Assembly: GCF_003334255.1 (NCBI RefSeq)
Contig: NZ_QOWU01000093.1
Direction: 5' to 3' (one strand)
DNA length: 7,900 nt
DNA from: Escherichia coli
Lineage (GTDB): Bacteria; Pseudomonadota; Gammaproteobacteria; Enterobacterales; Enterobacteriaceae
Shown here: positions 1,057 to 7,900 of the stretch, piece after piece
Position numbering within the stretch: the stretch's first letter is position 1
Layout: each line of letters begins with the position of its first letter
Notes under the pieces: generated by a model
The model's database searches: none
What the model was told of the DNA's origin: nothing
The model's input: only the letters and a program-made list of their open reading frames with translations
Made by a program: the position numbers and the translations under genes

Positions 1057-1839
1057 TCATTCGTCTTCTGAATCAGGTGTAATGATCTTTACAGAAGCAT
1101 TCCGGCAGTGCGTAACATAATCTGCCGGTAACGGACGCTCGCTAATCAGAACATCAAATGCAGAGAGCGGTGCGAGGCTGGCAGAGGCTACTTCATCGAA
1201 CAAGGCGTGGCGGGCGAGCAAAATTTTCCTTAGTCCACGGGCCATCGCTTTACGCTTAGTGGCAAGATCTTCGGGATTAAACCAGCTGACGCCAAAGTGA
1301 TCATGTACACCGCTGGCGGAAATAAATATTTTTCGCGGATTGAGAGAGTCTAATGGCGAAGAGTTACTGGCATCGTAAAAAGCATCACTTCTGGCACGAT
1401 ACGTACCACCACAAAGTATTGCTGTCACATTAGGTTTTTCATTCAACGCAACAAAGACACGATGTGAGTAACAGATGCCAGTGAAGGTGATTGCATCCGG
1501 GATCATGCTTATAACGAGCGGTATCTCCTGGCCATTATCAAAGAAGATCAGATCATTTTCATTAACCATTCCGGCGGCCAGAATTGCAATAGGTAAGTCA
1601 TCACGATGATTTCTCGGAACGTCCTGGATTACTGGCATGGATGGTGCGGGTTTATGCACCATTACAATATAGCCACCCAGTAGGGTCAGTGGCAGAGGTT
1701 CATCTTCCTGATGGAGATCGCGACGAATAGTCATTACAGAAACTTCCAGCATTCGTGCCGCGTCTTTCAAATGGATTCTGTCGGTTTTCTTAAGTATTTC
1801 AATCAAACGTCGGATACGCTCTTTTTGCTTCGTTTCCAT
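1057..1839 (-). CDS. deoQ: DeoR-family transcriptional repressor (N-terminal HTH, C-terminal sugar-phosphate-binding domain); likely deoxyribose operon regulator DeoQ
   Basis: N-terminus METKQKERIRRLIEILKKTDRIHLKDAARMLEVSVMTIRRDL closely matches my recollection of E. coli DeoR (METRREERIGQLLQELKRSDKLHLKDAAALLGVSEMTIRRDL). ATG is the complement of 1837-1839, with GGAGAG upstream on the minus strand; the ORF track starts one codon earlier at TTG (1840-1842). Divergent from a kinase-permease operon, as in deoQ/deoKPX. Confidence 0.85.
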   Translation of the reverse strand: METKQKERIRRLIEILKKTDRIHLKDAARMLEVSVMTIRRDLHQEDEPLPLTLLGGYIVMVHKPAPSMPVIQDVPRNHRDDLPIAILAAGMVNENDLIFFDNGQEIPLVISMIPDAITFTGICYSHRVFVALNEKPNVTAILCGGTYRARSDAFYDASNSSPLDSLNPRKIFISASGVHDHFGVSWFNPEDLATKRKAMARGLRKILLARHALFDEVASASLAPLSAFDVLISERPLPADYVTHCRNASVKIITPDSEDE

Positions 1840-1856
1840 CAACTCTCTCCGTAAAA

Positions 1857-3104: not shown

Positions 3105-4421
3105 ATGAACGATAAAAACATCATTCAGATGCCTGATGGGTATCTGAATAAGACCCCCTTGTTCCAGTTTATTTTGTTATCGTGTTTATTCCCGCTATGG
3201 GGATGCGCAGCTGCATTAAATGACATATTAATCACTCAATTCAAAAGTGTATTTTCGCTAAGTAAATTTGCTTCAGCATTGGTGCAGAGCGCATTTTATG
3301 GAGGTTATTTTTTAATTGCAATACCAGCATCCCTTGTGATTAAAAAGACCAGTTATAAGGTGGCAATTTTAATTGGCCTGACGCTGTATATTGGTGGTTG
3401 TACACTTTTTTTCCCTGCCTCGCATATGGCAACCTACACTATGTTCCTTGCGGCTATTTTTGCGATTGCGATTGGCCTGAGCTTCCTTGAAACTGCAGCG
3501 AACACATACAGTTCGATGATTGGTCCAAAAGCCTACGCTACATTGCGGCTCAATATCAGCCAGACCTTTTATCCGATTGGTGCTGCGTCTGGTATTTTAT
3601 TGGGCAAATATCTGGTTTTCTCCGAGGGGGAAAGCCTTGAGAAGCAGATGTCCGGAATGAACGCCGGGCAAATTCACAACTTTAAGGTGCTGATGTTAGA
3701 GAACACCCTTGAACCGTATAAGTATATGATTATGATTCTGGTTGTGGTCATGGTGTTGTTCCTTTTAACCCGCTTCCCAACCTGTAAAGTGGCACAGACA
3801 AGTCACCATAAACGCCCGTCAGCAATGGATACGCTGCGCTATCTGGCTAGAAATCCGCGCTTTCGTCGTGGTATTGTGGCTCAATTCCTTTATGTGGGTA
3901 TGCAGGTCGCAGTATGGTCATTTACCATCCGTCTGGCGCTGGAGTTGGGCGATATCAACGAACGTGATGCTTCAAACTTCATGGTCTACAGCTTTGCCTG
4001 CTTCTTTATTGGCAAGTTTATAGCCAACATCCTTATGACACGTTTTAATCCGGAAAAAGTCCTGATTCTCTATTCCGTTATAGGGGCGCTGTTTCTGGCA
4101 TATGTTGCACTGGCTCCAAGTTTCAGTGCGGTCTATGTCGCCGTCCTGGTAAGTGTTTTGTTTGGCCCTTGCTGGGCGACGATCTATGCAGGAACACTGG
4201 ATACAGTTGATAACCAACATACAGAAATGGCAGGAGCAGTCATTGTTATGGCTATTGTTGGCGCAGCGGTGGTTCCGGCAATTCAGGGATATATTGCAGA
4301 TATGTTCCACTCACTACAGCTTTCATTCCTGGTTTCTATGCTCTGTTTTGTCTATGTCGGTGTCTACTTCTGGCGTGAAAGCAAAGTACGTAATGCACTG
4401 GCTGAAGTCACAGAGTCCTGA
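3105..4421 (+). CDS. deoP: MFS transporter of the L-fucose:H+ symporter (FucP) family; likely deoxyribose permease DeoP (438 aa)
   Basis: Strong resemblance to FucP as I recall it (ALNDILITQF versus NNLNDILLPQF; SAFYGGYFLIAIPASLVIKK versus SAFYFGYFIIPIPAGILMKK), and hydrophobic throughout. SD AAAGG is upstream; the gene starts 27 bp after the deoK stop. Confidence 0.9.
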   Translation: MNDKNIIQMPDGYLNKTPLFQFILLSCLFPLWGCAAALNDILITQFKSVFSLSKFASALVQSAFYGGYFLIAIPASLVIKKTSYKVAILIGLTLYIGGCTLFFPASHMATYTMFLAAIFAIAIGLSFLETAANTYSSMIGPKAYATLRLNISQTFYPIGAASGILLGKYLVFSEGESLEKQMSGMNAGQIHNFKVLMLENTLEPYKYMIMILVVVMVLFLLTRFPTCKVAQTSHHKRPSAMDTLRYLARNPRFRRGIVAQFLYVGMQVAVWSFTIRLALELGDINERDASNFMVYSFACFFIGKFIANILMTRFNPEKVLILYSVIGALFLAYVALAPSFSAVYVAVLVSVLFGPCWATIYAGTLDTVDNQHTEMAGAVIVMAIVGAAVVPAIQGYIADMFHSLQLSFLVSMLCFVYVGVYFWRESKVRNALAEVTES

Positions 4422-4432
4422 GGAGAATCGTT

Positions 4433-4969
4433 ATGAGTACGCGTATTTATTTGTGGCGGGCGCTTTTTGGCGAAAAACCTCGTATCTTGCTGGAAAATAG
4501 TGATTTTACTGTCACGTCTTTTCGCTATGACAGTGGTGTCGAGGGGCTTAAAATTGCAAACAGTCGTGGACATTTAATTATTCTTCCCTGGATGGGGCAG
4601 ATGATTTGGGATGCGCAATTTGATGGACACAGTCTCACCATGTGCAATATGTTTCGCCAGCCTAAACCGGCGACAGAGGTGATAGAAACCTATGGCTGTT
4701 TTGCCTTTCATTCAGGTTTGCTGGCTAATGGCTGCCCATCTGCGGAAGATACTCATCTGCTACACGGTGAAATGGCCTGTGCCGCGATGGATGAAGCATG
4801 GATGGAATTAGAGGGAGATATGTGACGCCTTACCGGGCGTTACGAGTATGTAAAGGGATTCGGGCATCATTATCTGGCTCAGCCAGCAGTGGTCCTTCAC
4901 AAATCCTCTACACTGTTCGATATTAAGATGGCCGTAACCAATCTGGCTTCTGTAGATATGCCACTACAA
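4433..4969 (+). pseudogene. deoX: deoX-like gene (putative aldose-1-epimerase/mutarotase-like), disrupted by an in-frame TGA at 4823-4825 and 3'-truncated by the IS66-family terminus
   Basis: ATG 4433 with SD AGGAG overlaps the deoP stop (translational coupling). The 130-aa ORF ends at TGA, but the same frame stays open for 48 more codons (RLTGRYEYVKGFGHHYLAQPAVVLHKSSTLFDIKMAVTNLASVDMPLQ) up to stops that overlap GTAAGCG at 4970-4975. HLLHGE and VTN...P segments loosely resemble aldose-epimerase-family proteins such as YphB; that family assignment is tentative. Confidence 0.55.
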
Positions 4970-5001
4970 TAGTAAGCGGCTCGCCAGAACCGTCTTAATA
5001 T

Positions 5002-5183
5002 TTACTGAGAGCTCAGATCAACTTTCCAGGGCAACAGATCGCGTACCCGATTTGCCGGCCAGTCCTGGATATGTTCAATGACGTAACGCAGCCATTTTTC
5101 TGGCTCTACATTGTTCAGACGGCATGTGCCGATCAGCGAGTACAACACCGCCGCATGTTCGCCACCGCTGTCGGAACCCGCGA
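5002..5183 (-). CDS. tnpC: IS66-family transposase TnpC, 3' exon (C-terminal 60 aa: (F)AGSDSGGEHAAVLYSLIGTCRLNNVEPEKWLRYVIEHIQDWPANRVRDLLPWKVDLSSQ)
   Basis: Hand translation of the minus strand. It joins in frame to the upstream exon across the proposed intron, using T at 7008 plus TC at 5183-5182 to form the Phe codon. It is not in the ORF track because it has no start codon of its own. Confidence 0.75.
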
Positions 5184-5186
5184 GTC

Positions 5187-5222
5187 GAGTCAGCCGGAGA
5201 GAATTTCACTCCCCGGCTGCTC
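5187..5222 (-). ncRNA. Group II intron domain VI with bulged branch-point adenosine (plus 5190, 7 nt from the 3' splice site)
   Basis: Minus strand GAGCAGCCGGGGAG / loop UGAAAUU / CUCUCCGGCUG-A-CUC forms a 14-bp helix with one bulged A, followed by GAC and then the exon. Confidence 0.6.
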
Positions 5223-5225
5223 ACG

Positions 5226-5259
5226 GAACCGTACGTGACACTCTCGCGTCATACGGCTC
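5226..5259 (-). ncRNA. Group II intron domain V (catalytic hairpin)
   Basis: Minus strand GAGCCGUAUGACGCGAGAGUGUCACGUACGGUUC: 34 nt with the AGC triad at positions 2-4, a 2-nt bulge on the 3' strand, a GAGA (GNRA) tetraloop and G-U wobbles at the canonical places. It starts 4 nt after the IEP stop. Confidence 0.88.
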
Positions 5260-5263
5260 TTGA

Positions 5264-6496
5264 TCACTCATTCGATGCACGTAGTAAATACCAGTGGACA
5301 AATAGCTTCGGATACTCCTTCCTTACCAGCGTCAGCTTTCGCTGAGCCCTCCGGTTCGAAAGTCTGTATTTAGACTGCATCCACTTGAGCAGACGTGACT
5401 GCATTGCACTCCACAGTCGATAGTTGAAATTTCTGGACCAGAACTTTCCGTAGTACTCGATCCAGCCTCTCACTATCGCATTGTAGCGCCTCGCAAAATC
5501 CAGCAAACTCTCAGCTGTTGAGCGATGTATACGCCACTTCTTGATTGTTTCTGTTATTTTGCGCATTGCTGCATTTGACGCACCCGGCATGCATTTTCGG
5601 TACAGTTCGCCTTTGAAATTCTTCAGCGTACGCACTTTGAAGTCATATCCGAGAAAGGTGAAACTCGTTGCGACGTTTCTCCTTTTAAACGTGTCAATGT
5701 AGGCGATATTCGTTTTCCCTGCATTCAGGACCAGCCCGACTTCCGAGAAGCGCTCCGATAACCTGTTCTTCAGCCTTGTTGCATCACTCATTCGTGAACA
5801 ATGTACTACAATATCATCAGCGTACCTCTCAAACGGTACCCCCCGATATTCTCTTTCCATCCACAAATCAAATGCATAGTGAAGGAACAAGTTAGCAAGT
5901 AGCGGACTAATGACCCCGCCCTGCGGAGTGCCTCGTGTTCGGGTTATTAATTCTCCATTTTCACAACTCTGCATTGGTGCTTCCATCCAGCGTCGACAGT
6001 ACAGGATGACCCATTTAGGCATCCCGTGGTGTTCCAGTGCTTTGAGCACCAGATCATGTCTCACATGGTCGAAAAACGCACTGATGTCCACTTCCAGTAT
6101 CCAGCTATAACGCCAGCACCGGATGGCACATTGTTTCAGAGCGTCATGAGCTGATTTGCCTGGTCGGTAACCATAAGAATCAGCATGGAAAATCGGGTCA
6201 AGCTTTTCTTCCATAAAAAGTTTTATCGCTCCCTGAGCAATTCGATCGGATACTGTTGGGATCCCCAGAATGCGCTCCTTGCCATTCGGCTTCGGGATCC
6301 GTTTTTCCAGCACAGGTGGCGGAAACCATGTTCCCGAACATAGCCGGTTCCAGATCTTGTATAGATTGCCATCACGTTGCTGGTCGAACATTTTCAAAGT
6401 CTGTCCGTCGCATCCGGGGGCTCCCTTGTTGCGACGCACATCCAGATATGATGCCCAGACCAGTGCTTTTGGTATTTCGAATGATTTTCGTTGCAT
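5264..6496 (-). CDS. Group II intron-encoded reverse transcriptase/maturase (410 aa; RT domains 0-7 plus X/maturase domain, no recognisable C-terminal DNA-binding/endonuclease extension)
   Basis: RT motifs are present: NKGAPGCDG (RT0), GIPTVSDRIAQ, YGYRPGKSAHDAL, TPQGGVISPLLANL and YADD (plus 5813-5824). The maturase motif RGWIEYYG follows. ATG start at 6494-6496; the reading frame is intact. Confidence 0.92.
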   Translation of the reverse strand: MQRKSFEIPKALVWASYLDVRRNKGAPGCDGQTLKMFDQQRDGNLYKIWNRLCSGTWFPPPVLEKRIPKPNGKERILGIPTVSDRIAQGAIKLFMEEKLDPIFHADSYGYRPGKSAHDALKQCAIRCWRYSWILEVDISAFFDHVRHDLVLKALEHHGMPKWVILYCRRWMEAPMQSCENGELITRTRGTPQGGVISPLLANLFLHYAFDLWMEREYRGVPFERYADDIVVHCSRMSDATRLKNRLSERFSEVGLVLNAGKTNIAYIDTFKRRNVATSFTFLGYDFKVRTLKNFKGELYRKCMPGASNAAMRKITETIKKWRIHRSTAESLLDFARRYNAIVRGWIEYYGKFWSRNFNYRLWSAMQSRLLKWMQSKYRLSNRRAQRKLTLVRKEYPKLFVHWYLLRASNE

Positions 6497-7007
6497 CAGT
6501 TACATCATCCCCTTATGGGTTGTGTCTTTTGCAATGAATGTGATCCCCATCCCTTCGCTCCAGACCCATTACAGATCTTTCATCACTACTACGAATGGGT
6601 CCGCCCCTGTTTCCCGATACGTGCCGGAAACAGGTTCTCACGTTCCCTGAGATGGTCTGGCCCGGGATCCTGCTGCCTTAACACCGGATGCCGCGCAGTC
6701 AGTAAGCAGGTGTCTTCTGCGCTTATCAGAGGACGGCTGTACGGCCCCATTTTGACATCATCTAAGATTTCGATGCTTCATCGGACAGTTTACTTTCGTT
6801 CAGCTTCCCGAACCCCACGTGACAGTAGATCTCTGCCTTTTCCCGAGTCGCTCACCACTACATTCCTTAGAATGAAGCAGCACCGGGTCGTTTGGTCAGT
6901 GTTCCTGCAAACCCTGACCGGAGGGCCCACCTCCACCCACCTCAGAGCATGGATAACTTATGCTGCAATTTTCATATTGCCGCTATCAGTTCTCCTTCGT
7001 GACACAC
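6497..7007 (-). ncRNA. Group II intron domains I-III (and the start of IV), 5' ribozyme portion
   Basis: Position and length fit, being about 0.5 kb between the 5' GUGUG and the IEP start. The internal secondary structure was not resolved by eye. Confidence 0.55.
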
Positions 7008-7823
7008 ACAACCAGTTCTTCCGGCCCACGGCCACACCCCGTAAGGCGTTCTCTGCGATGTTGTTGTCGATTTCCACCCAGCCATTGCTGCAGTACACGT
7101 TCAGGGCCTCCCACTGTTTCAGCAGGTATGCGAACGCTTTCGCCGTATCCGAGTGACGCGACAGGGTTTTCATCTTTTCACGCAGCCAGCTTTCCAGGGA
7201 TTTCAGCAGCGGTTTCGTTTTCAACTGACGTTCGGCAAGGCGCTGCTCCGCCGTCATTCCCCTTATCTCTGCCTCGATGGCGTACAGTTCGCCGATCCGT
7301 TTCAGCGCTTCCTCCGTCAGGGCTGACGGGGTGCGAACGTGCACATCGTGGATTTTACGGCGGGCGTGAGCCCAGCAGGCGGCTTCCGTTATCCGGCCAT
7401 CCCGGTACAGCTCGTTGAACCCGGCGTATGCATCCGCCTGCAGTACACCACTGAACCCCGCAAGATGGGTCTGCGGATGGATGCCTTTTCTGTCCGGGCT
7501 GTAAGCGAACCACACCGCCGGCGCCAGCGTTGACCCGGCGTTACGGTCGTCACGAACGTAGGTCCATAACCGCCCGGTCTTCGTTTTCTTATTGCCTGGC
7601 AACAGCACCGGGACAGGCGTGTCATCAGCATGGAGCTTACCGTCAGTCAGCACATAGTCCTGAAGCGCTTCTTCCAGCGGTGACAGTAGCCGGCAGCATG
7701 CATCCACCCAGCCCGACAGCAGTGAACGACTCAGCTCCACACCTTGCCGGCCGTATATTTCTGACTGGCGATACAGCGGGGTGTGCTCTGCATACTTCGA
7801 GGTCAACACGCGGGCCAGCAGCC
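7008..7823 (-). CDS. tnpC: IS66-family transposase TnpC, 5' exon (central region, N-terminally truncated)
   Basis: Translation ...[34 protein letters not shown]...[20 protein letters not shown] matches the IS66 TnpC pattern. ORF-track entry 6958..7809 is this frame reading 16 codons into the intron before a stop. No IS66-like coding continues beyond 7823. Confidence 0.75.
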
Positions 7824-7900
7824 CATAAGCGCTAACTTAAGGGTTGTGGTATTACGCCTGATATGATTTAACGTGCCGATGAATTACTCTCACGATAACT
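7824..7900. mobile_element. Probable IS186-like (IS4-family) terminal region abutting and truncating the IS66-family tnpC
   Basis: CATAAGCGCTAACTTAAGGGTTG at 7824-7846 matches my recollection of the IS186 terminal inverted repeat. It is preceded by a GC-rich stretch (GCGGGCCAGCAGCC), in keeping with the GC-rich targets I recall for IS186. The tnpC frame hits a stop at 7837-7839. This rests on memory only. Confidence 0.45.

Follow-up and report, generated by a model that had tools for sequence, protein, structure and literature searches.

At the right-hand end of the stretch of Escherichia coli DNA analysed here (7,900 nt in total; hereafter the window), the tnpC gene of an IS66-family element breaks off, and 77 nt of other sequence follow before the window ends. 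This raises the questions of what interrupts the gene, how the interruption came about and what is to be expected beyond it. The explanation that we regard as very probable is that IS186 (IS4 family, alias IS421) transposed into tnpC of an IS66-family element situated at the end of a deoQKPX deoxyribose island. Sequence comparison established the identity of the three mobile elements involved, the exact position of the junction and the motif at the target.

The deo island and the adjoining IS66-family element

The island is represented in the window by deoQ (1057-1842, minus strand), deoK, deoP (3105-4421) and the 5'-terminal 539 nt of deoX, a gene of the aldose-1-epimerase family (4433..4971, plus strand). 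Up to position 4971, these sequences share 98.4% identity with the island of strain FCI55, which is intact; beyond it the two diverge. deoX is truncated at 4972, where the terminal repeat of the IS66-family element, GTAAGCGG, begins. In fact, deoX is doubly inactivated, being cut at approximately codon 180 by the IS66 repeat and carrying an in-frame TGA at 4823-4825, which corresponds to a Leu131-to-stop change relative to FCI55. With deoX both truncated and provided with a nonsense codon, the deo island is decaying in the present strain. Comparison with WP_000350265.1 further showed that 15 nt (GCCGCTTTGAAAAAA) are tandemly duplicated in frame near the C-terminus of deoK, at about 2949-2978, so that AALKK is repeated. 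The deoX/IS66 junction of the window was absent from all complete E. coli genomes examined. If the IS66-family element had inserted into deoX in a simple manner, an 8-bp duplicate, CTACAATA, followed by the remaining part of deoX (TATGTGCC...), would be expected past the left end of the element.

The right end of the IS66-family element (4972..5182, minus strand) consists of the terminal inverted repeat (GTAAGCGGCTCGCC...) and the end of tnpC, here referred to as the 3' exon. This segment is 99.5% identical to ISCro1 of OkiPb01677, and the repeat at 4972 aligns with the ends of both ISCro1 and the D8 element. The middle part of tnpC, encoding the DDE domain (residues 185 to ~455 of 513), lies at 7010..7823 (minus strand) and shows 94% DNA identity to the tnpC genes of ISEc8-like elements and ISEc22; it is cut on its N-terminal side at the junction. 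Of the tnpA-tnpB-tnpC set that characterises the IS66 family, the window contains tnpC alone, and of this gene the two thirds distal to its start; tnpA and tnpB would lie past IS186.

The two parts of tnpC are separated by a group II intron of 1,827 nt (5183..7009, minus strand), which is located inside tnpC and in the same orientation. It was recognised by matches to Rfam families RF01999 at 6818-6934 (93.4 bits; gathering score 36) and RF00029 at 5184-5261 (57.1 bits; gathering score 40), and by an open reading frame for a reverse transcriptase/maturase of 410 aa (5264-6496, minus strand) with RVT_1 and GIIM domains. Removal of the intron joins the exons in frame (...GRKNWFAGSDSGGEHAA..., encoding ...GRKNWF|AGSDSGGEHAA...). 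Since the intron lies in the sense orientation and would leave an in-frame message if spliced, it need not by itself have inactivated tnpC.

The two exons of the IS66 remnant differ in their affinities, the remnant being a mosaic with its switch across the intron. While the 3' exon (4972-5182) is ISCro1-like at 99.5% identity, the 5' exon (7010-7823) is ISEc8/ISEc22-like at 94% and only ~74% ISCro1-like. This may be due to recombination among IS66 copies with the intron in them, or the mosaic may be a natural one. From 4971 to 7502, both exons included, the window is matched without a break by plasmid NZ_CP053235.1.

The tnpC junction coincides with the left end of IS186

The similarity to IS66-family tnpC, which runs on the minus strand, stops at 7823/7824, directly after the ...GPGLLA codons at residue 184 of 513. 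This is where an earlier, sequence-only reading of the same DNA had noted an abrupt loss of homology (about 7823). That reading had also proposed an IS186 inverted repeat at the junction and a sequence comparison of 7824-7900, which returned IS186/IS421 at 100% identity. Indeed, the segment 7824..7900 (plus strand) is the left end of IS186/IS421 (E = 1e-31 against an 'IS4-like element IS421 family transposase'), and it opens with the 23-bp left terminal inverted repeat, CATAAGCGCTAACTTAAGGGTTG (7824..7846, plus strand), which complete copies of IS186 carry without any change at each of their ends. In K-12 MG1655, the matching sequence is annotated as 'insertion sequence:IS186A', with insL1 as 'IS186/IS421 family transposase'. 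The minus-strand tnpC frame crosses the junction and is closed after 13 nt of IS186 by an in-frame stop codon (7837-7839), again as previously described. One detail needs to be corrected: the junction had been placed after a G, while it actually follows the last C of GGGCCAGCAGCC, at 7823|7824. The C at 7824 can be assigned to either the target or IS186. With IS66 from 4972, the intron at 5183-7009 and IS186 from 7824, the three layered mobile elements that had been suspected beside the deo operon are all present.

The start codon of insL was found at 7879 on the plus strand, 56 nt from the IS186 end (ATG AAT TAC TCT CAC GAT AAC, encoding MNYSHDN). The end of IS186 seen here is therefore its left end, reading away from the IS66 remnant. 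Within the set of 5,426 complete E. coli genomes, 2,188 contain matches to 7824-7900 at ~100% identity, which add up to 8,459 places; the median is 3 for each genome with IS186.

The window itself corresponds, at 100% identity, to positions 42-7941 of draft contig CBCRYS010000126.1 (7,985 bp; assembly GCA_965136505.1), which extends 41 nt beyond window position 7900 and thus ends 118 nt into IS186. Over these 118 nucleotides (77 in the window plus 41), the sequence is that of K-12 IS186A from its first nucleotide onward, with 0 mismatches. An IS186 element has one DDE transposase ORF, and full copies in other genomes measure 1,339 bp, of which only the left 118 nt are visible here. This is typical of short-read assemblies, which break in multi-copy repeats, and the window and contig end at this point because multi-copy IS186 broke such an assembly. 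One could argue from the mere 118 nt on view that only a solo end of IS186, a fragment rather than a whole element, is present. We regard this as very unlikely: the visible part passes through the terminal repeat into insL and is identical to the active K-12 IS186A, and a break at ~118 nt into the repeat is what would be expected for a full-length, multi-copy element sequenced with short reads.

A preferred IS186 target in the GPGLLA codons of tnpC

The preferred target of IS186 is 5'-GGGG(N6/N7)CCCC, as stated in a passage of PMC6925257 that cites Chong 1985 and SaiSree 2001. In the window, the left half of the target, GGGCCAGCAGCC, occupies 7812..7823 (assigned to neither strand), and the sequence without the interruption is GGG-CCAGCAG-CCCC. 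Across the site, an uninterrupted ISEc8-like relative (L003) reads ACGCGGGCCAGCAGCCCCGGTCC. The restored target is therefore GGG-N7-CCCC, one G fewer than the consensus, and this fits the GC-rich target preference that the sequence-only reading had ascribed to IS186. In a restored 7.9-kb window, it is the sole G3-N7-C4 site and one among three G3-N6/7-C3 sites. That the junction coincides with the motif is not due to chance.

On the plus strand of the window the site reads GGGCCAGCAGCCCC and arises from the Gly-Pro-Gly-Leu-Leu-Ala codons of the IS66-family tnpC; the target motif is the reverse complement of these G-P-G-L-L-A codons, which specify residues 179-184 of the 513-aa TnpC. The motif is kept in ISEc8-like, ISEc22 and ISCro1-like tnpC genes and lost in one ISEc43-like copy, which is free of an insertion.

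These observations suggest the following course of events. IS186 prefers a G run, 6-7 arbitrary bases and a C run, for which the GPGLLA codons supply a suitable site, and it inserted there in such a way that its left end and insL face outward from the portion of tnpC that remains. TnpC is thereby split between its zinc-finger/leucine-zipper part (residues 1-184) and the DDE catalytic domain. Consistent with such a split, PF13005 and PF13007 are found in the N-terminal fragment of TnpC and PF03050 in the retained fragment, where the called 283-aa product matches PF03050 DDE_Tnp_IS66. A transposase split in this way leaves the IS66-family element permanently disabled, and the copy beside the deo operon is dead.

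Conceivably, a short-read assembler could have misjoined an IS66 fragment and an IS186 end, as the contig ends in a repeat and both IS66 and IS186 are multi-copy. Yet the join falls precisely where IS186 ends and where a canonical target for it lies, this same contig has been recorded from 2 samples, and the identical site has been hit in finished genomes (see below). We thus consider a misassembly extremely unlikely.

Expected sequences beyond the visible part of IS186

Transposition of IS186 into tnpC makes predictions for the DNA past the contig end. In a simple nest, the right end of IS186 would adjoin GCCAGCAGCCCCGGTCC..., and with a 10-bp duplication the sequence would read GTTAGCGCTTATG and then GCCAGCAGCCCCGG. 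By analogy with homologous nests in other genomes, it is probable that a full IS186 of 1,339 bp is present, followed by the 10-bp duplication GCCAGCAGCC and then by the 5' part of tnpC, tnpB and tnpA. Direct target duplications of IS186 usually span about 10-13 bp, and those at the homologous site in other genomes measure 10 bp.

A further prediction concerns the protein that a right-hand junction in the window orientation and with a 10-bp duplication would encode, namely TnpC residues 1-184 plus the read-through tail ISANLRVEPSEECDASVPR. This protein is recorded exactly on 6 contigs, all from other samples, on which the right junction reads ...GGGGCTGCTGGC|CATAAGCGC...TTGAACC. An exact look-up of the protein with the tail of an 11-bp duplication (...GLLAHKR) gave no record. 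In a search for the partner protein (TnpC 1-184 plus the predicted tail), the inspected cluster representatives included many truncated TnpC proteins, none of them with the IS186 tail, and the look-up of an ISEc8-type C-terminal partner yielded only one unrelated, frameshifted tnpC.

At the DNA level, an exact scan of species-representative genomes with a 38-nt junction gave 0 matches, and none of the complete E. coli genomes (n = 5,426) showed this combination of junction, orientation and IS66 variant when probed with 1,101, 140 and 80 nt. A scan of metagenomes for the right-hand junction returned one contig only, with IS186 in the opposite orientation.

The same tnpC site is occupied by IS186 in other IS66-family elements

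IS186 also occupies the homologous site in other IS66-family backgrounds, of which at least four were found, and both orientations are represented. Two of these loci are complete nests with 10-bp duplications. In the plasmids of ETEC O169:H41 (L007; e.g. NZ_CP024274.1), IS186 lies in ISEc43 in the same orientation as in the window, and the duplication GCAAGTAACC is followed by 5' tnpC, tnpB and tnpA. The second nest is located in cbrC (L010; NZ_OW968288.1), where ISEc22 carries IS186 in the opposite orientation, flanked by the 10-bp duplication GCCAGCAGCC. Another ISEc22 copy, near iha (L008; NZ_CM128582.1), has IS186 in the opposite orientation with the same 10-bp duplication and has lost part of 5' tnpC. 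Furthermore, in an ISEc8-like element on metagenome contig OCAB01000998.1 (L015 1-1901; 99.4% identical to L003), IS186 is found in the opposite orientation at the same tnpC site. The left end of this element is inserted at the equivalent of window position 317/318, just upstream of the deo island. This constitutes a second IS66::IS186 nest at the border of the island, independent of the first.

In two further cases, IS186 at the homologous site is joined to unrelated DNA. The first is the pheV island of JNEC-KY203 (L006), in which the IS66 variant is 87% identical overall and 100% identical over 70 nt of the flank; IS186 is in the opposite orientation, its other flank is DNA from upstream of serA, and no duplication is present. 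The second is a metagenome contig (L016; JGI 3300029851), one of the 6 that encode the predicted right-hand junction protein, on which IS186 lies beside the 5' half of an ISEc8-like tnpC from 2675 onward and leads into plasmid maintenance genes (DUF1380, YubE, methylase, StbA/ParM) without a target duplication. The latter copy represents a recombinant IS186 in plasmid surroundings. A candidate on plasmid pMTY14664_IncFII (L009), where IS186 lies beside IS66, was rejected as an example, as it involves a different site, GGGGCAACACCT.

Both outcomes, the intact nest and later recombination, thus occur at this tnpC site, and this bears on the main alternative for the window. According to this alternative, IS186 did insert into tnpC, but has since become a recombination joint whose other end adjoins unrelated DNA, recombination with another IS186 having inverted or deleted the segment that bore 5' tnpC, tnpB and tnpA. 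JNEC-KY203 and contig L016 show the very arrangement that would result, including the absence of a duplication at the site in JNEC-KY203, and the median of 3 copies per IS186-bearing genome would provide partners. Against it, the complete nests with intact duplications (L007 and L010) exist as well, and within the window there is no sign of rearrangement at the present copy. On balance, we regard a recombination joint as possible but rather unlikely, and the insertion of IS186 as part of a nest that continues into the remainder of the IS66-family element is the reading we prefer.

IS186 copies within IS66 as endpoints of rearrangements

The finished genome of JNEC-KY203 (NZ_AP045179.1) illustrates what can follow from such an insertion. 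It contains two inverted copies of IS186, at L006 6071-7409 and L014 ~13059-14398, each of which carries one half of a target duplication in the serA-rpiA region (GGGAACCTCC). While one copy abuts the IS66 tnpC site, the second, ~58 kb away, lies between a truncated cdiA and rpiA. This signature indicates an IS186-IS186 inversion of ~58 kb that included the pheV island. Since the flank on the cdiA side differs from the IS66 duplication, more than one event took place in JNEC-KY203. As judged from this one finished genome, IS186 copies in IS66 can serve as endpoints of large rearrangements. The idea that the end of the deo operon is a hot spot for rearrangements, as the sequence-only reading had it, is speculative for the present genome, with JNEC-KY203 as a real precedent.

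Taken together, the affected lineages comprise the mosaic element of the window, ISEc8-like elements, ISEc22, ISEc43 and the JNEC-KY203 variant, with IS186 in both orientations, and insertion at the tnpC site has taken place several times independently. We think it likely that the conserved G(P/A)GLLA codons of IS66-family TnpC constitute a conserved IS186 target (GGGCCAG[C/A]AGCCCC), and that IS66-family elements of different lineages have repeatedly and independently been knocked out by IS186. Should this be true, it would represent a small case, so far unreported, in which one IS family is the systematic target of another, and the IS186 copies left behind in islands and plasmids would later act as recombination anchors. 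The same nest recurs since the preference of IS186 coincides with a conserved motif of the IS66 transposase. This makes the IS66 site a warm spot that is explained by the known target preference of IS186.

Two additional observations concern the target choice of IS186. In NZ_CP025842.1 (L004 2501-3839), IS186 resides in the reverse transcriptase gene of a group II intron at a G5-N6-C5 site with an 11-bp duplication, GGCCCATACCC, and this is a further case of IS186 landing in a mobile element. In addition, the flanks of IS186 copies in fimA (~12 complete genomes) resemble the IS66 flank of the window over ~20 nt, which suggests that the target preference extends past the G and C runs.

Comparison with known systems

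The layering and nesting of known elements described here is a strain-specific instance and not a new kind of thing. It explains where the contig ends and, as a routine nested insertion of known elements, has little significance beyond annotation. In a full-text search of the literature, IS186 and IS66 were named together in a single paper, and there only in passing; the recurrent use of the GPGLLA codons as an IS186 target is the only, mildly new, point.

With regard to the individual elements, the IS186 of the window and K-12 IS186A are alike in the visible 118 nt, the left 23-bp repeat and the start of insL 56 nt in, and they share a GC-rich target of a G run, N7 and a C run; no difference is detectable in the left end, which is the part on view. 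The IS66-family element has the GTAAGCG terminal repeat of its right end, the end contained in the window, and a DDE_Tnp_IS66 TnpC in common with ISEc8, ISEc22, ISCro1 and the D8-type IS66::group II intron, while it differs from all of these in being a mosaic. The D8-type element, from strain D8, carries the same intron at the identical position, with 97.4% identity.

Among the nests, ISEc43::IS421 resembles the window most in its layout, with IS186 in homologous tnpC codons, in equal orientation and with the same split between the zinc-finger and DDE parts of TnpC, and it shows the 10-bp duplication with tnpB and tnpA beyond. Its host element, however, is only ~66-70% identical to that of the window, lacks the intron and occupies a different genomic location; given this low identity, it represents an independent event. 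In ISEc22::IS421 and the IS66 remnant of JNEC-KY203, the insertion site is identical to the base with that of the window. As IS186 is opposite in orientation in both, they too are separate events, and the JNEC-KY203 copy differs further in being a rearrangement joint.

The closest precedent for the targeting itself is the insertion of IS186 at lon (2001), which the passages of PMC3045373 and PMC6925257 that cite it present as site-specific, orientation-independent and directed to a G-run/N/C-run motif, as observed here. The lon insertions are selected for their phenotype and the site is hit very often; the IS66 site, by contrast, accounts for roughly 9 of about 2,780 IS186-bearing records.
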